Shown here: positions 476 to 61,279 of the stretch, piece by piece
Numbering within the stretch: the first letter of the stretch is position 1
How the letters are laid out: every line of letters starts with the position of its first letter
IMG/VR virus record: IMGVR_UViG_3300033148_005363
Span: 1 to 64,000 of that record
Reading direction: 5' to 3' (one strand)
Origin: a virus
DNA: 64,000 bases
Notes under the pieces: model-generated
What the model was told of the DNA's origin: nothing
The model's database searches: none
Seen by the model: the letters and a program-made list of their open reading frames with translations, nothing else
Position numbers and translations under genes: made by a program

Positions 476-1147
476 CTAGACATCCTGCGCCAACAGGACA
501 TCGCGCCGGTAGAAGCGTGGTTCATCTTTGGGGATCAGGGCGGTCTTGCTTGTCCGCTGCCGCCCGGGCCAATCGGTGAAGAATCGGACCTTGATCACCG
601 AGGGGGTGGCTCCGTAGACGACCCCGGGGACGGCTCGCCAGATCCGCGGAGCGCCCCGCTTCCCCCCGCGTACCCACACCTTGTCACCATCGGGGATCCC
701 GTACTCGACGACGTCCAGGGGGTACCAAAGCCGCTGTCGGCAGTCCTGGCAGAGATCCATGGTAACCGGGGCCCTCGGGTCCTTGTCCCGCTGGTAGAGG
801 TGGGCGTCGCATTCCACGCAGTGGCCGGGCAGGAATTTCCGCTTGACCTGGTCGGCGACCTTCCGCGCCGTGCGGATCTCGTCACCGGAGACGGGGGCCT
901 CGACGTCATGGAACTCGGCCAGTGCGACCTCCGCGGCCTTCGCACCAGCCCGCCGCCGATTGTAGTCCTGGACGGACAAGAAGTTCCGGCAGTTGACATC
1001 GTGGTGAATGCCGTCGGGATCCCAATACCCGGATCCCATGTAATACTCGTCGTAGCACGCCCGCCTGGTCATATGACGCCAGCGGGTATCGCCACCCGAG
1101 GCTTTCCAGCGCGCATCGGATCGGCAGTGTCGGCAGATGTCAGACAT
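476..1147 (-). CDS. Hypothetical Cys-rich (CxxC x3) protein, last gene of the cas-containing operon
   Basis: CRHC, CVEC, CQDC motifs; starts 3 nt after the csf3 stop with a GGAGG RBS. Confidence 0.6.
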   Translation of the reverse strand: MSDICRHCRSDARWKASGGDTRWRHMTRRACYDEYYMGSGYWDPDGIHHDVNCRNFLSVQDYNRRRAGAKAAEVALAEFHDVEAPVSGDEIRTARKVADQVKRKFLPGHCVECDAHLYQRDKDPRAPVTMDLCQDCRQRLWYPLDVVEYGIPDGDKVWVRGGKRGAPRIWRAVPGVVYGATPSVIKVRFFTDWPGRQRTSKTALIPKDEPRFYRRDVLLAQDV

Positions 1148-1150
1148 TCC

Positions 1151-1828
1151 TTACCTCCTCCAGGGCAAATAGTCCCCCGCCTCCACATAATCACCCACGT
1201 CGCACATAGGGCGCGTGTCCACGCTGTTCCAGTACGGCGGGCGGGTGCGGCAGATCCGCACGCCGTCCTCGACAGGCAGATACCGCATCGCTTGCCCGTC
1301 CCGCACCACAGACAGGTCTTTGTCCACCACCTCGACCGTGACACCCACGACGCGCCCCCGCCCGCGTGCCCGGTCCCTGCCCAGGTAGCGGATCGGCTTC
1401 TGGCGGAAGAGCTTGGCCACCTCCTTGCGAACGCCGTACACGTACCCGACCATGGACGTACAGAGCACCAGGGGTAGGCCGACATTCCATTCCTTGCCTG
1501 TGCCAATCTGTGTATTCCAGGTGCCCTTGGTCATGTGCAGCCGGTCTTGCTGCATCTTCCGCCGTCGGTAGTCCATGGATTCAGCGGTCTCCCCGTCCGG
1601 GGTCAACGCGCTTGTGCAGTAGCCCCATACGGAGCGGTCAAGCCTCCATCGCCAGCGTCCCAGGGGCATCCTGATATCGTCCGGCCTCTCGTCTCTGGCC
1701 GGTGGCGTGAGCCCCTGGTGCGGAGCCAGGATAGCGCCCAAGAGCGCGTCGAGGTGGATAGGCTCATGAGGATCCAGCACTACGCCGGAGCCATCGAGGG
1801 TGAATGTGATCTTCAGTGGTCTCAGCAT
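1151..1828 (-). CDS. csf3: Type IV CRISPR-associated Cas5-family protein Csf3
   Basis: PLKITF start, PIHLDALL, Gly-rich loop YLGRDRARGRGRV, C-terminal RPPYW; start set at ATG 1828 after GAGGAG. Confidence 0.85.
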   Translation of the reverse strand: MLRPLKITFTLDGSGVVLDPHEPIHLDALLGAILAPHQGLTPPARDERPDDIRMPLGRWRWRLDRSVWGYCTSALTPDGETAESMDYRRRKMQQDRLHMTKGTWNTQIGTGKEWNVGLPLVLCTSMVGYVYGVRKEVAKLFRQKPIRYLGRDRARGRGRVVGVTVEVVDKDLSVVRDGQAMRYLPVEDGVRICRTRPPYWNSVDTRPMCDVGDYVEAGDYLPWRR

Positions 1829-1839
1829 TGGGTTCTCCT

Positions 1840-2568
1840 CTACACCATTCCGAGGTGTCGCAGCTTGCGATACAGCGCAGGATAGTGTCTGCGCACGTAC
1901 TCTGCGGAGCCGCTTTCCTCGCGCGTGACATTCCATGCCCAGCCCACGCGGATCGCGTTGCGGTCTCGCCACTCGGTGCGCTGATAGGCGGGGTGGATCG
2001 GCAGGCCGTGCTCGTCCAGATAGGCAAACGAATCAGCTCCCAGCCAGCGCCGCATCGGATTGGCTACAGCGCACCCCCAGTAGGGACTGTCCCGGATCGG
2101 GCCTCGGCTCTGGATAAGGATCTTGCGCTGCGGGGCCTCGTCCATGCGCAGCCCGACGAAGTTGAGCACGATCCCGTTTTCGATCAGTGCTTTACGGATC
2201 GGCTCCACAAGCACGCATTCATGAGTGCGACGGGTATTTCTCCGGGCGGCATCATGCCCCTCTTTTTTCCAGTGCGCCATGACATCGCCGGGGGCAATCA
2301 CCAGCGGACGCCCCAGCAACTCAGCAGTGCGTCTGACGACCCCCTCGGTTTCCTCCATCTCCAGACCGGAGTTGTTCCACATGACGACCGGGTCGCAATG
2401 CTGGACCACGATATGCGCCATGGCTACGGAGTCCTTGCCCCCGGACACTGCCACCGTCGCGGGGCCTGGATACTGAACGAGTGCCTCCTTGACGATAGCA
2501 TGGGCATCCGCTATCACGCCCCGATAATGGCGCCCCTGTGTATGCCTGTAGAGCACGTCCTCAAGCAT
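1840..2568 (-). CDS. cysH: CysH/PAPS-reductase-like protein (type IV-B accessory)
   Basis: PP-loop AVSGGKDS, FVGLRMDEAPQR, NPMRRW, LPIHPAY; start overlaps the csf1 stop. Confidence 0.85.
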   Translation of the reverse strand: MLEDVLYRHTQGRHYRGVIADAHAIVKEALVQYPGPATVAVSGGKDSVAMAHIVVQHCDPVVMWNNSGLEMEETEGVVRRTAELLGRPLVIAPGDVMAHWKKEGHDAARRNTRRTHECVLVEPIRKALIENGIVLNFVGLRMDEAPQRKILIQSRGPIRDSPYWGCAVANPMRRWLGADSFAYLDEHGLPIHPAYQRTEWRDRNAIRVGWAWNVTREESGSAEYVRRHYPALYRKLRHLGMV

Positions 2569-3271
2569 CGGCTGCGCTCCCGGCCGCTGCGTTCTTCCGC
2601 TCCTCAATGCTGGGCAACAGATAGCACACGAAGCGATACAGCGGAGACCTCCACTTGTCCGCGCTCCACTTCTCGAAATCCAGCCAGGTGCTGATTCCGG
2701 AGCGCTTGATCGTGGCGACGTTCGGGTGTCGGGATTCCAGCGCTGGCCGCCCGATCCCGCTTTCCAGATACCCGCACAGCCGGGTGTACATCGCCCTCAC
2801 CGCTGCGCCGTCTGAGCAATCCACAAGCACGTCGTCGAATGCCCACAGGGCGCTGCGCGGGTACGCGTTGACGCGGGCTACCAGGATCCCGTGCTTCTTG
2901 TATGACGTGGTGCAGTAGGCTGCCCATCGCTCAGGGGGCGAATCGAAGAACCCCTCCGGCCCCTCAAGGACGGCCCGGCGCACGTCCGGACGGCGGAGTT
3001 TGACGAACTGCCGGCCGTCGCAGATCCACGAACTCATCCGCTGCCATTTCCACTTGAGCGCTTGGTATGTCTCTACTCCTACCAGATCGCTATTCGGCGC
3101 AGCGAAGATTCCCTGGGTCGTGAAGTTGCCCCCGATCGCGTCCTTGCGGCGGATGCATGGCCCCTCCCTACCGGTGACCGCGCACGTCCCATGCACGGGC
3201 TCCTGTGGCAGCGGTACCCGCTCGGTGAGGGGTAGCAGAGCAGACGCTACCAGTTCAGCCGGACTACTCAT
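2561..3271 (-). CDS. csf1: Type IV large subunit Csf1 (Cas8-like)
   Basis: N-terminal CAVTG, SSWIC, TTSYKKHG motifs; lies between csf2 and cysH. Confidence 0.7.
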   Translation of the reverse strand: MSSPAELVASALLPLTERVPLPQEPVHGTCAVTGREGPCIRRKDAIGGNFTTQGIFAAPNSDLVGVETYQALKWKWQRMSSWICDGRQFVKLRRPDVRRAVLEGPEGFFDSPPERWAAYCTTSYKKHGILVARVNAYPRSALWAFDDVLVDCSDGAAVRAMYTRLCGYLESGIGRPALESRHPNVATIKRSGISTWLDFEKWSADKWRSPLYRFVCYLLPSIEERKNAAAGSAADA

Positions 3272-4499
3272 CCGAACCAGCGGGAGCGATAGCCGAGATC
3301 TCCCGGAGGAAATCCAGGATCATGTCCTTGTTCTCGGCGAGGAAGGTCTCGTACGGCTCCGAGGACGGGAGGTTGTCGTACTCGATTTCCACGCTCCCGA
3401 GCCCGCGGCGTCCCTCGGCACCCAGCCGCCCCTGCTTGCGCATGAGTTCCAGGCCGACAGCAAGCGCGGACAGTTCGACCTCCGAGATATGACCCAGCAG
3501 ATCCACGCCGCCCTCCAGTTCTACGCCTGTTTTCAGACACTCGGTGGTGGCGATCATGCCGGAGTGCTTGTCGTACTCCTCGCGGTCCTCGCGACGGGTC
3601 AAGAACTCCCAGCAGAAGAGCTGCGAAACGTTCTGCTCACCCGTCCCCCACTGCTTGCACAGCGGACGCAGGTCGTTCACCTGGATCCTGCCAGCCAGGA
3701 TCTTGTTGCCGACTGAGCACCCGAGAAGGCTGATCGACGGGAGCGTGTCGCGGAAGCGATGCACGCCCCTGGCCTTGACGGCACCGGCGCTCCCGAGTAC
3801 GGCGGCGACGGCCTTGTGCGCCTTGCTGGTCTTCTCTTCCAGCGCGCCCCCTGAGTAGAGGACCTGGAAGAAGTAGGGCTCGATCGGTGGATTGCTGCGG
3901 CTGGGGACCAACCCCAGATTGTCTAGCAGGTGGTCAGCCAGCAGGTCCCGCATCCGGCCCCGGAACGCGTTGCCCGCGTAGTACGGCAACGACAGGACCT
4001 TGTCCGTATCCGTAAGCACGTCCAGGCGGCGGAACATCGTGGCATTCCCGGCTTTGATGTCCGCGCCGTGAGACAGCGGCGACAAGCACTGGACACGGAT
4101 CGGGATGTCGAATCCTCTCCGCTGGGGAGCTGCCCCGCTGGCCCCCTCGTCTGCCTCGATATCGATCGATTCCAGGCTGGACAACAGCATGGCCTCGTCC
4201 GTGACGGCCGAAAGCATCGCCGCTATACGGGAGTGCCCCGACAGCCAAGCCACCACGGCCGGCGCGTCGGGGTTCGCGCACTCGGTCAGAAACGCGGTGA
4301 CCGTGGTCTCCGCTATCTTGTCGGCCGCGAATTCCACGGACTCCACCAGATGTTCCATCATGGACACCAGGCTGGCCTCGGTGCACGCCTGCCGGATGCG
4401 GTCAGCGAAGAAATCCAGGAAGTTCCTGGAAACCTTCATCTGCGCGCCGTCGCGCACAGCGCTCATCATCCTGATTGTCGTTTCGAGTGTCTTGTTCAT
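3264..4499 (-). CDS. csf2: Type IV Cas7-family Csf2 with an N-terminal helical (Cas11-like) extension
   Basis: LSPLSHG, PYYAGNAFRGRMRD, LYSGGAL, PSISLLG, FLTRREDR, G-loop LGAEGRRGLG; about 120 extra N-terminal residues. Confidence 0.88.
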   Translation of the reverse strand: MNKTLETTIRMMSAVRDGAQMKVSRNFLDFFADRIRQACTEASLVSMMEHLVESVEFAADKIAETTVTAFLTECANPDAPAVVAWLSGHSRIAAMLSAVTDEAMLLSSLESIDIEADEGASGAAPQRRGFDIPIRVQCLSPLSHGADIKAGNATMFRRLDVLTDTDKVLSLPYYAGNAFRGRMRDLLADHLLDNLGLVPSRSNPPIEPYFFQVLYSGGALEEKTSKAHKAVAAVLGSAGAVKARGVHRFRDTLPSISLLGCSVGNKILAGRIQVNDLRPLCKQWGTGEQNVSQLFCWEFLTRREDREEYDKHSGMIATTECLKTGVELEGGVDLLGHISEVELSALAVGLELMRKQGRLGAEGRRGLGSVEIEYDNLPSSEPYETFLAENKDMILDFLREISAIAPAGSDE

Positions 4500-5065
4500 T
4501 GCTTTTCCCTCCATTTTCTCTGTTGGTACACCACTACATACACCCCGTGCCTGACCACCCTGAGCCGCTTCTGCTCAACGAATCTCAGGAGGATCGTCTC
4601 GACCTTGGCGACCGTCTCCGCCCCGATCTCGCTCTTGATATCGAATGCGTACCGATGTTGCTCATCCTCAAGCAGGTGCGGGATCAACGTCGCCGCCGTG
4701 AACGGCTCATCCGCCTTGGGCCGGAGCACGCGGAGAACCTCCTCAAGCGCCCGTTGCCGCAGCACGCGCTTTCGAAACGCTCGGTTTTCTTCGTTGTCCG
4801 TGAGTCCCCATTTGCCCATGAAGTACAGGAGGTTCTTCGGCGTCCAGTGCTTGCCCTTGATCGTCGTGATCCCCGCTCTGTTCAGGCGATCGGCGATTTG
4901 CTGCGTCGTGTTCCCCTTGTCTTGACCATCTCGGATCATGGTGCGGACCCGTCGCTCTTCGGGGTGAGGTTGCCGACGCAGATTTTCCCAGCGCTTATCC
5001 GTCCGGTAGATCTTGAGGGGCCTCTTCTTGTACTTGTTGGGGACGTGTCTGTAATACTGGACCAC
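4496..5065 (-). CDS. DNA-binding protein with serine-recombinase-type 'Recombinase' domain and probable C-terminal winged helix
   Basis: IADRLNRAGITTIKGKHWT motif; no catalytic resolvase domain; ATGA overlap with csf2. Confidence 0.6.
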   Translation of the reverse strand: MVQYYRHVPNKYKKRPLKIYRTDKRWENLRRQPHPEERRVRTMIRDGQDKGNTTQQIADRLNRAGITTIKGKHWTPKNLLYFMGKWGLTDNEENRAFRKRVLRQRALEEVLRVLRPKADEPFTAATLIPHLLEDEQHRYAFDIKSEIGAETVAKVETILLRFVEQKRLRVVRHGVYVVVYQQRKWREKQ

Positions 5066-12029: not shown

Positions 12030-14233
12030 TTCGCCGCCCCCGCCGCCTCACCAAACAGGTCCGTGGCCCGGGGCTTGCGCAGCCGCTCCATGAGGTGGGT
12101 GAACCGCTCCACAGGCCGGTTGTTCGACACCGCCCGGCCGCGGGCCTTGCCCATGCCCACCACGATCACCTTTCGCTCCCCGCGGGTAATCGCCGTGTAG
12201 AAGAGATTGCGGGCTAGCATAATGTAGTGTGACCAGTGTACTATCACAATTATTGCAGATAGCTGGCTTCCCTGATATTTATGAATTGTACACGCGTAGG
12301 CGAGTTGCAGGTTCCACGTCTGCGTCCGCGTGTATTCCACCGTCTGCCCGTCGATCCGCACGTAGAGCCGGAACGGCTTCGCGTCGAAGTTCACCACCGT
12401 CCCGATGTCGCCGTTGTACACCTCCAGTTCGTAGTCATTCCGCGTCTGCATGACCTTGTCGCCTACGCGCACCGAGCCCCCGTCCTGGAATCTCAGCGCC
12501 GCCTCGCCGTGCTTGTTCAAGCGCCCCTGCAACAGCCGATTGAGGCCCTCAGTACCGATCGGCCCTTTGCGCATGGGGGTCAGGATCTGGACGTCGCGCA
12601 CCGGATCAAAGCCCTCCTCGCGCAACCGCTGTAACGCTTCCAAGACCTGGACCTGCGCGCCTGTCGGATCCGGGTCAGCGTCGATCCACTCCATGTCCTG
12701 CGCCTGCCCCTCCTCAGCCTGCCACACAAGCTTCTCCTCGGCCTGCACGCGGTGGGCGTTCGCGATGATCATGCTCCCCTGCGCTTGCCGGTAGATCACG
12801 TCCAGGCGCGTCACGGGGACCACCTCCGACTGGATCACGTCGCGAAGCACCGCGCCCGGGCCAACGCTCGGGAGCTGGTCAACGTCGCCAACCAGGATCA
12901 GCCGGTGCTCGTCAGTCAGCGCGTCCACCAGCCGATAGGCCAGGTTGATATCCACCATCGAAACCTCGTCAATGATCACCGTCCCCGCAGGCAGCGGGTT
13001 CGCGGCGTTCATTCGCCAGCCCTCATCGGGGTGATACGCGAGGAGCCGATGGATCGTCCGCGCTTCCAGGCCCGTGGATTCCTCCATGCGCTTCGCGGCC
13101 CGGCCCGTGGGCGCGGCCAGGGCTACGGATTCCCTCCGTTGGCGTAGGAGGTAGAGCATTGCCTTGAGCACGGTCGTCTTGCCCGTCCCCGGCCCTCCGG
13201 TGACGATCGACACCCTCCGGCTCACGCTCGTCACCACCGCCTCCCACTGCCGATCCGAAAGGTCGTGCCCCATGTGCGCCTCCACCGCGTCCCGGTCCAC
13301 CAGGGTAATCTGGTCGTCCACCTTGGACATCGCAGCCAGGGTGGTTCCCACCTTGCTCTCAGCATTGTACAGGGGCATCAGATAGACGCGGCACTCGGGG
13401 TCCTCCAGTCTCCCGTCGGCGCAGACGCGCGCACCCCGCACGAGGGAGCGCAGCGCGTCGTCAACGTTCTCCGCCGGTACACCGAGGAGCCTGCACGCGT
13501 CCTGATGGAGCTTCCCGAGCGGCAGATAGCAGTGACCCCCGTTCTTCTGCGCCTCCTGCAACGCGAACTCGGTGCCCGCCTGGACCCGGAACGGGGAGGT
13601 CGTCGGGATCCCCATGCGCTTGGCTACCGCGTCCGCCTTCTTGAATCCGATGCCATCGACCCGCGTCAGCAGGTACGGATTTTCTTCCAGCATCCCCACC
13701 GTCTGGTCTCCGTACCTCTTGTACACGCGGGTGGCGTACGCAGCCGAGATCCCGATGCGGAAGAGGAACACCATCACGTCCTTCACCGCCTTCTGCTTGA
13801 CCCACGCCTCAGCGATCTTGCGGGCGCGCACGGGGCCGATCCCCTCGACGGTCCTCAGTCGTTCGGGATGGTGCTCAATGATATCCAGGGTCTCCAGACC
13901 GAATGCCTTGACCAGCCGCCGGGCCATGACGGGGCCGATGTCCTCAATCAGCCCCGAGGCCAGGTACTTGACGATCGCCTGGATACCCTGTGGCTCGGTG
14001 ACCGTGTAGTCCGTCACCTGGAGGTCTTGCCCGCCGTACCGATCGTTCTCCTTCCACGTCCCTTCTGCGACAATCTTCTCACCGGGGAGGACACCGGGCA
14101 TCTTGCCCACGATCTTCGCTTCCCGCCCGCTTCCGACATCCACCACTGCCACGGTGAAAAACGACTCATCGTCCCGGTAGATGAAGTGGGTGATAGTCCC
14201 CTCTACTTTCCCCTTGCCGTCTCGCTCAACCAT
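12026..14233 (-). CDS. recD2: RecD2-like SF1B helicase
   Basis: HhH N-terminal domain, GGPGTGKTT, APTGRAAKR, IIDEVSM, GDVDQLPSVG, AYACTIHKYQGSQ, YTAITR. Confidence 0.92.
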   Translation of the reverse strand: MVERDGKGKVEGTITHFIYRDDESFFTVAVVDVGSGREAKIVGKMPGVLPGEKIVAEGTWKENDRYGGQDLQVTDYTVTEPQGIQAIVKYLASGLIEDIGPVMARRLVKAFGLETLDIIEHHPERLRTVEGIGPVRARKIAEAWVKQKAVKDVMVFLFRIGISAAYATRVYKRYGDQTVGMLEENPYLLTRVDGIGFKKADAVAKRMGIPTTSPFRVQAGTEFALQEAQKNGGHCYLPLGKLHQDACRLLGVPAENVDDALRSLVRGARVCADGRLEDPECRVYLMPLYNAESKVGTTLAAMSKVDDQITLVDRDAVEAHMGHDLSDRQWEAVVTSVSRRVSIVTGGPGTGKTTVLKAMLYLLRQRRESVALAAPTGRAAKRMEESTGLEARTIHRLLAYHPDEGWRMNAANPLPAGTVIIDEVSMVDINLAYRLVDALTDEHRLILVGDVDQLPSVGPGAVLRDVIQSEVVPVTRLDVIYRQAQGSMIIANAHRVQAEEKLVWQAEEGQAQDMEWIDADPDPTGAQVQVLEALQRLREEGFDPVRDVQILTPMRKGPIGTEGLNRLLQGRLNKHGEAALRFQDGGSVRVGDKVMQTRNDYELEVYNGDIGTVVNFDAKPFRLYVRIDGQTVEYTRTQTWNLQLAYACTIHKYQGSQLSAIIVIVHWSHYIMLARNLFYTAITRGERKVIVVGMGKARGRAVSNNRPVERFTHLMERLRKPRATDLFGEAAGAAK

Positions 14234-61040: not shown

Positions 61041-61114
61041 TCGGGGTGGCCGGATTCGAACCGACGACGTCCTGGCCCCGAACCAGGCGCGCTACCAGAC
61101 TGCGCTACACCCCG
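61041..61114 (-). tRNA. tRNA-Pro (CGG)
   Basis: Cloverleaf: CGGGGTG acceptor, CCTGG-TTCGGGG-CCAGG anticodon arm, GGTTCGAATCC; no encoded CCA. Confidence 0.93.
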
Positions 61115-61118
61115 AAAG

Positions 61119-61190
61119 CAAGCCGACCGGGAATCGAACCCAGGATCTGCGGTTTTGGAGACCGCTGTTCTACCACTGAACTATCGGCCC
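61119..61190 (-). tRNA. tRNA-Trp (CCA)
   Basis: GCGGT-CTCCAAA-ACCGC anticodon arm, GGTTCGATTCC; two G-U pairs in the acceptor stem. Confidence 0.9.
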
Positions 61191-61206
61191 AGACAAACAC
61201 ACCCAG

Positions 61207-61279
61207 AGCACCGGGAGGGGATCGAACCCACTGCCTGCTGATTACGAAACAGCCGCTCTGCCAAGTGAGCTACCGGTGC
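61207..61279 (-). tRNA. tRNA-Thr (CGT)
   Basis: GCACCGG/CCGGTGC acceptor, loop TTCGTAA, GGTTCGATCCC. Confidence 0.9.

Follow-up and report, generated by a model that had tools for sequence, protein, structure and literature searches.

Can a single phage gene encode, in one polypeptide, both Cas11, the small subunit of a CRISPR-Cas complex, and Csf2, which forms its backbone and is the Cas7 of type IV systems? The question is raised by a gene at 3264-4499(-) of the IMG/VR virus record IMGVR_UViG_3300033148_005363, of which the first 64 kb (hereafter, the window) were analyzed; the full record spans 86,604 bp and has a CheckV completeness of 100%. A sequence-only reading of the window had proposed that this gene fuses Cas11 to Csf2 and thereby fixes the ratio of the two subunits along a filament. 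To our knowledge, no class 1 CRISPR-Cas subtype is less well understood in its function than type IV-B. Considering structural, profile and comparative evidence jointly, we regard it as very likely that 3264-4499(-) is a natural Cas11-Csf2 fusion with a linker of fixed length, derived from adjacent genes, forming a clade of its own and serving as the protomer of a filament.

The joined frame and its two domains

All the peptides on which the sequence-only reading was based lie within one open reading frame (ORF), 3264..4514(-), of 416 aa. Translation almost certainly begins with the ATG at 4499, because homologues begin with MNxTL at this position, a GGAGGG site lies 7 nt 5′ of it and the ATG overlaps the stop codon of the upstream gene as ATGA. 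The gene is hence taken as 3264-4499(-), encoding 411 aa, and the range that first drew attention, 4130-4499, corresponds to residues 1-123. Its parts are as follows:

4164..4499 (-): Cas11-like small-subunit domain, residues 1-112 of 411; predicted seven-helix bundle (AlphaFold2, predicted local distance difference test (pLDDT) 92)
4107..4163 (-): linker, residues 113-131, with conserved G122-x-A124 (pLDDT ~71-74)
3264..4106 (-): RAMP core of Csf2 (type IV Cas7), residues 132-411 and stop codon (PADLOC Csf2_0_IV, E 1.3e-41)

The C-terminal assignment is straightforward. The match of the PADLOC model Csf2_0_IV covers residues 139-406 of the 416-aa frame, and the type IV-A Cas7 models come next at 7.5e-34 and weaker. 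Searched against the PDB, a profile of 120 family members matches both Cas7c of type IV-C (1.3e-12) and the Csf2 of 7JHY (9.3e-9), the type IV-B complex, while the best Foldseek matches of the full-length model are the type IV-A Csf2 7xg2_E (2.4e-9) and the IV-B Csf2 7jhy_a (2.7e-9; template modelling score (TM-score) 0.71 on the target). The family is a distant one, since NCBIfam TIGR03115 scores 33.7 bits against a cut-off of 130; a single-sequence phmmer comparison with the 7JHY Csf2 gives E 0.25.

The helical stretch of about 120 residues that had been noticed ahead of this core was recovered by structure prediction. Folded alone from a 120-row alignment with AlphaFold2, residues 1-130 reach a mean pLDDT of 92.0 and a predicted TM-score (pTM) of 0.82. 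The model consists of seven helices that fall within residues 3-111, and the RAMP core follows from about residue 132. Residues R25, D33, R34, L44, E49, L51, W85 and R87 are each kept in at least 90% of the 120 rows, and the conservation of the domain in 119 listed homologues points to a protein domain far beyond chance. When the model was compared with 48,161 representative PDB chains by VIA-align, the first place was taken by 7jhy_h/g, the Cas11 of type IV-B, with Z 8.1 and a root-mean-square deviation of 3.5 Å over 99 of 143 residues (15% identity); the runner-up chain had Z 5.0 and the Cas11 of the type I-B CRISPR-associated transposon (CAST) Cascade Z 4.7. Realignment of the 100 chains aligned by Foldseek itself gave 8.1 for the 7JHY Cas11 against 2.2 for the runner-up. 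Papers are cited here by identifier for those parts of their text that were accessible; in PMC7937560 the 7JHY Cas11 is described as a small-subunit fold distinct from those of types I and III, and the VIA-align match is the more specific because of it.

Several results weigh against this identification and would suit an N-terminal bundle unrelated to Cas11, for instance a phage-specific regulatory or docking domain, that resembles it only as helical bundles generically do. Foldseek on its own returns nothing at E <= 0.001 for the N-terminal domain; it places 7jhy_g sixth, at E 3.4, and this chain has the highest TM-score among the listed rows (0.49/0.46). A VIA-align Z below ~13, as here, may reflect an arrangement common in helical bundles, and for that reason the identity of the domain is not rested on Z alone. 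Identity to the 7JHY Cas11 is just 15%, and direct matches to hidden Markov models (HMMs) are weak and partial. The PADLOC model Cas11_0_IV aligns with domain residues 19-62 (E 3.4e-4). In a six-frame search of all 86,604 bp its single match, at 4314-4445(-) inside the N-terminal domain (E 8.3e-5), spans 44 of 114 profile positions, and seven of the 14 control genomes also give a match to this model at E <= 1. Against the unrelated bundle stands the fact that the sole outlier among the 48,161 chains is the protein one would expect to accompany Csf2, with a lead of three Z units over all others, and that independent sequence evidence agrees with Cas11. The family profile matches Cas11c of type IV-C (124 aa) at E 9.4e-4, aligning profile positions 21-98 with chain residues 38-118. 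Singly the profile tests for Cas11 are weak, yet they are in agreement.

The claim that the genome has no separate small-subunit gene also stood. The second PADLOC type IV Cas11 model, Cas11_1_IV, finds no match in the six frames of the 86,604-bp genome, so that the two models together reveal no separate cas11 gene in the complete genome, the only match to either being the one inside the N-terminal domain.

Relatives with separate genes and conservation of the joint

Further evidence on the nature of the N-terminal domain comes from relatives in which the two subunits are separate. Scanning IMG/VR with the family alignment yielded 58 loci, 50 of the fused family and eight unfused (L066-L073), the latter matching residues ~130-403 only, at 26-28% identity. 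In L066-L071 a csf1-like gene (203-207 aa) is followed by an ORF of 123-125 aa, csf2 (272-298 aa), a csf3-like and a cysH-like gene, and csf2 starts at or beside the stop codon of the short ORF. An HMM of the fused N-terminal domain selects the ORF abutting csf2 upstream in seven of the eight unfused viral loci (E 7e-7 to 4e-4), with nothing else below 0.8 among the ~120 ORFs listed; these stand-alone viral cas11 homologues have 123-130 aa and lie directly upstream of csf2. The two short ORFs scanned with PADLOC, those of L066 and L072, match Cas11_0_IV at E 2.5e-19 and 1e-10. A plasmid collection supplied three archaeal core-only matches, among them a Natrinema (L011) and a Thermococcus (L012) plasmid, whose Cas11 ORFs rank 1 and 2 of 11 ORFs with the plain N-domain HMM at 4 bits, a score not significant alone; the phage collection gave no tblastn match. 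Aligned by hhalign with nine stand-alone Cas11 proteins (the seven viral short ORFs together with the 138-aa Natrinema and 136-aa Thermococcus ORFs), the fused N-terminal domain reaches a probability of 93.2% and E 2.9e-7 over 82 columns, a stretch that includes the near-invariant R25, D33/E, R34 motif of the family.

A homologue of the N-terminal domain thus occupies, as a stand-alone gene that PADLOC calls Cas11 at up to E 2.5e-19, the cas11 site of unfused loci, and we consider an unrelated helical bundle highly improbable. The fold of the domain is related to Cas11, and its homology to type IV Cas11 is supported both by structure (Z 8.1) and by profile (Cas11c, hhalign), in line with the fusion originally proposed.

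An error of assembly or sequencing could also have produced the frame, if the loss of a stop codon, or an indel, had merged separate cas11 and csf2 genes in this record. A word-indexed search scored 8,000 candidates and found 219 proteins at E <= 0.001, of which 119 are listed besides the query; these have 392-552 aa, are 45-87% identical to the query over 92-99% of its length and all carry the fusion. When 1.84 billion cluster representatives were searched exhaustively, 548 proteins matched at E <= 0.001; of these, 229 reached <= 1e-10 and 72 reached <= 1e-30. Among the 68 best 50%-cluster representatives (E <= 2.1e-40) 67 span the junction: 62 are proteins of 389-482 aa matched in a single stretch that begins at or before query residue 36, and five are shorter pieces that still cross the junction; one, P0129, matches the core only. 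From ~E 1e-24 down the matches are mostly proteins of 259-325 aa that align with residues ~131-405 only, that is, ordinary unfused Csf2. At the nucleotide level, 60 fused-family loci were assembled from two collections, 10 from species genomes (L001-L010) and 50 viral (L016-L065), with L003 and L050 being the same contig and L005 and L045 probably so. One continuous match crosses both domains in 57 of them; contig ends truncate L053 and L064, and in L058 the linker contains a frameshift at eight consecutive C.

Broken copies thus do occur in relatives (L058, P0232, P0259, P0121), as an error would predict, but their breakpoints differ and each is an isolated case surrounded by intact copies. 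In P0232 (148 aa) and P0259 (247 aa) the sequence becomes unrelated past the linker or near the beginning of the core; both look like accidents similar to L058, whose frame change (L058:2900-2920, in C8) is a homopolymer sequencing error or marks a pseudogene. With the joined frame present in the 119 listed homologues, 57 of the 60 loci and 67 of the 68 top representatives, and with a linker of fixed length carrying a conserved G-x-A motif, conservation of the sequence effectively refutes an assembly error, to which we leave next to no chance. The stop codon between the domains that had been named as a refuting observation was not seen, the open frame across the junction being kept in independent assemblies of relatives.

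Two candidates for a split form were examined and rejected. P0121, the one match among 28 candidates of 30-225 aa (query residues 1-125), is a 74-aa copy of P0002 that diverges after residue 62; P0129 (301 aa, 55% identical, core only) is encoded on a contig of 1,566 bp, and its 90% cluster also holds a protein of 417 aa. The stand-alone Cas11 proteins were invisible to this short-protein search because it needs shared 5-residue words, and were found later by synteny. The check for split homologues thus ended with a fused family intact in 57 of 60 loci and with distant unfused relatives that carry cas11 directly upstream of csf2. This adjacency argues for a fusion of two neighbouring genes; the fused protein keeps the cas11-then-csf2 order of L066-L072, L011 and L012, and the joining of adjacent cas11 and csf2 would be the parsimonious origin.

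The limits of the family are less sharp. P0190 (456 aa) is a divergent protein, 34% identical over the core, whose N-terminus of ~145 residues is not aligned by phmmer and contains an R..D.F..R-like motif; the fused clade may, judging from this motif, extend past the 72 representatives at E <= 1e-30. A further N-terminal extension precedes the Cas11 domain in P0120 and P0022/P0096 (alignment columns 1-55), with two CxxC pairs in P0120. L073 (5422-7005), and likewise P0216 (498 aa), is a high-G+C Csf2 with ~185 extra N-terminal residues in its longest ORF. These residues show no similarity to the Cas11 models or to the N-domain HMM (E 6.4), and they may reflect an ORF that was called too long or an N-terminus gained independently.

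On a tree of the Csf2 core, fused and unfused proteins fall on opposite sides of one branch, with a Shimodaira-Hasegawa-like approximate likelihood ratio test (SH-aLRT) support of 97. The tree comprises 41 of the 120 fused rows (the window and every third row) and 10 unfused rows; the L072 ORF was trimmed by 45 residues at its N-terminus, and the L073 ORF is represented by residues 186-475 only. A single origin of the fusion is consistent with this topology and not proven by it, because the unfused rows number only 10, four of these have very long branches and the rooting is arbitrary, all of which counts against reading too much into the split.

Proposed assembly of the fused protein, and its gene module

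The sequence-only reading also described the connection between the domains as acidic. This holds for the present copy, where the acidic stretch is IDIEADEG, and fails as a family trait: what the family conserves is the length, 20-24 residues with a median of 21 (n = 120 rows), and the G-x-A motif, with G122 in 93% and A124 in 82% of the rows. The full-length AlphaFold2 model has pLDDT 90.5 and pTM 0.85. Fixed linker length and high monomer pTM would fit a defined tether.

In 7JHY, according to PMC7937560, six Csf2 subunits form the backbone on RNA and five Cas11 subunits make up a belly, in which each of the five occupies a Csf2-Csf2 interface and is shielded from the RNA; type IV-C has seven Cas7 to six Cas11 in the part of PMC13676074 consulted. 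We infer that the fusion protein polymerizes on RNA like the Csf2 of 7JHY, in which case each protomer would bring its own Cas11 domain and the minor, or belly, filament would be built in cis at 1:1 rather than n:(n-1). The n:n ratio would leave one surplus Cas11 domain at one end, either free or in contact with Csf1 or Csf3. With a Cas11 domain on every protomer, we propose, assembly of the two filaments would therefore be coupled and separate control of cas11 dosage would fall away. The bound RNA is probably not a CRISPR RNA (crRNA), by analogy with other type IV-B systems. Two considerations argue for caution with this model: compared with the known 6:5 complex, stoichiometry would be controlled only slightly better, and the model presupposes that the protein stays uncleaved, forms a filament and holds its Cas11 domain where Cas11 lies in 7JHY.

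Tethered 1:1 stoichiometry would indeed apply only if the protein stays unprocessed. Were the fused gene to give two products, through an internal start or proteolysis in the linker, stoichiometry would not be fixed and the fusion would provide coupling of expression only. The linker is the lowest-confidence part of both models (residues 1-130 and full length), a point in favour of this alternative. Considering ATG only, however, Met exceeds 8% of the 120 rows in no linker column, and in 81 of the 120 rows there is none between residues 108 and 136, so that a conserved internal ATG start is unlikely; such a start would moreover give Csf2 without Cas11, and not a small subunit. Fixed length and motif would also suit a structural tether better than a cleavage site. 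We therefore think it unlikely that two products are made, and favour the intact Cas11-Csf2 protomer.

The gene is the second in a tightly packed minus-strand run that encodes a helix-turn-helix (HTH) protein, the fusion protein, csf1-like, cysH-like and csf3-like proteins and a Cys-rich protein. Its neighbours are the following:

4496..5065 (-): upstream 189-aa protein; Pfam Recombinase-type HTH, E 8.2e-4, below cut-off; ATGA overlap, translationally coupled to the fusion gene
2561..3271 (-): csf1-like gene (Cas8-like large subunit), 236 aa; PADLOC Csf1_0_IV, E 4e-9; 8-nt overlap with the csf2 stop
1840..2568 (-): cysH-like PP-loop enzyme; Pfam PAPS_reduct, E 1.6e-15; ATG 2568 inferred, longest ORF from TTG 2607
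1151..1831 (-): csf3-like gene (Cas5); PADLOC Csf3_0_IV, E 8.2e-26; TIGR03116, E 3.7e-12, below cut-off; start 1831 inferred from the start of the HMM match
476..1147 (-): downstream 223-aa Cys-rich protein of unassigned family; sub-threshold DZR_2 match alone

The order cas11-csf2, csf1, usually an accessory enzyme, csf3 is found here and in 57 of the 60 loci of the fused clade. Downstream of the fusion gene, 59 of the 60 show a same-strand Csf1-like match, which in 57 is the first to follow that gene, and a Csf3-like match is present in 54. Exceptions to the order are L053, which is cut, and L027 and L055 (7236-10209), two rearranged modules with two Csf3-like matches and csf1 after cysH. 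In L008 a PAPS-reductase ORF separates the fusion gene from csf1. In L001 a second, partial Csf2-like match occurs at 12719-13120, 1.5 kb downstream of the module. The HTH and Cys-rich proteins that flank the module in the window have no tblastn match in 68 related loci and are thus not conserved module partners; they are translationally packed with the module yet look specific to this phage lineage.

The accessory enzyme was counted by tblastn with representatives (same strand, >=50% coverage, E <= 1e-5) whose assignment was confirmed with Pfam. A short CysH-like protein alone is present in 32 loci, a PAPS-reductase plus DUF3440 protein in 15 and a radical SAM protein in eight; in five loci, some of them cut, none was found. 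A ParB_N protein adjoins the PAPS-reductase plus DUF3440 protein in 13 of its 15 loci. Judged by these matches, the enzyme encoded between the csf1-like and csf3-like genes is interchangeable within the fused clade. The hosts named in the ten genome records include Chloroflexota, Desulfobacterota, Bacteroidota and Proteobacteria, among others.

The 86,604-bp phage genome has 63.6% G+C and an exact direct terminal repeat of 114 bp at its ends. Tandem Repeats Finder (TRF) reports nothing array-like in the window, and in the whole genome TRF finds short coding repeats only and there are no exact 18-mer repeats at a spacing of 40-110 nt. The complete phage genome contains no CRISPR array. Within the eight ORFs between 476 and 6469, Pfam, NCBIfam and PADLOC give no match to DinG or RecD helicases, Cas6 or adaptation families. 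The Rfam matches in the window are three tRNAs only (RF00005, 55.8-66.7 bits), encoded by adjacent genes at 61041-61279(-).

The fusion now defines a separate, widespread and mostly phage-borne clade of array-less type IV-B-like modules. One may tentatively go further, to a reading that we rate as possible and no likelier than that: the fused clade would be a separate phage-borne type IV subtype instead of a peculiarity within IV-B, with a self-assembling Cas11-Cas7 protomer and its own gene order, that provides an RNA-bound platform for interchangeable enzymes and acts in guide-free modification or marking of nucleic acid during infection, as counter-defence or host takeover.

Comparison with known systems

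Its set of parts, Csf1, Csf2 and Csf3 with a homologue of Cas11 and a CysH-like enzyme, and the lack of an array make the module type IV-B by content. Two formal features of that subtype are absent, namely a stand-alone cas11 gene and the canonical order csf1-cas11-csf2-csf3. Because standard Cas11 models barely detect the fused domain (E ~1e-3 to 1e-4), annotation will label loci of this kind as incomplete or 'cas11-less' type IV. The literature searched, covering text but not figures, supplements or subscription papers and including the accessible parts of PMC10541130 and 10.1101/270033, yielded no description of a type IV Cas11-Csf2 fusion; the parts available of PMC7038947 and PMC8175902 mention a csf1-csf3 fusion (IV-E) and loci lacking csf1.

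The sole solved IV-B complex lacks Csf1 and Csf3 and is bound to random RNA, as far as described in the accessible text of PMC7937560. The tethered clade would offer a simpler, self-contained building block for reconstitution and structural work. The fusion itself suggests that the Cas11-Csf2 contact is under selection strong enough for hard-wiring, and a large set of phages pairing one scaffold with different enzymes provides a handle on the purpose of that scaffold. Interest in the clade would grow if it proved to be a distinct enzyme-carrying platform.

The canonical IV-B system of Mycobacterium sp. JS623, the source of 7JHY (PMC7937560, in part), shares with the present module Csf1, Cas11, Csf2, Csf3 and a CysH-like protein, its location on a mobile element, and the lack of a CRISPR array. 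The Mycobacterium system also has no Cas6, adaptation genes or nuclease, and in the phage the eight ORFs between 476 and 6469 gave no match to Cas6 or adaptation families. The folds of Cas11 (Z 8.1) and Csf2 (Foldseek E 2.7e-9) are likewise shared. In the phage module, in contrast, a single polypeptide comprises Cas11 and Csf2, csf1 comes after csf2 and not ahead of cas11, the sequences are remotely similar and the expected ratio is n:n rather than 6:5. The unfused IV-B modules of phages (L066-L072) and archaeal plasmids (L011, L012) are the nearest split relatives found, with Csf2 cores 26-30% identical and a Cas11 gene of 123-138 aa abutting csf2 upstream. They differ in having two genes in place of one, in their order, csf1-cas11-csf2-csf3-cysH, and in their position on the opposite side of the core-tree branch.

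Type IV-C (Cas7c/Cas11c, PDB 11fs) provides the best PDB profile matches for both halves of the protein, and its Cas7-Cas11 pairs line the guide; unlike the module described here, it has a Cas10-like HD large subunit, a crRNA, a chromosomal location and a separate Cas11, according to the portion of PMC13676074 that was available. Within class 1, covalent linkage of Cas11 to Cas7 has a precedent in type III-E Cas7-11 (gRAMP) and in III-D/Dv, to judge from the accessible parts of PMC11127173, 10.1101/2022.06.13.496011 and PMC11026444. Those systems combine several Cas7 domains and one Cas11 in a single non-repeating polypeptide (PMC11127173, in part), whereas the phage protein joins one Cas11 to one Cas7 in a protomer that would be expected to repeat along the RNA.

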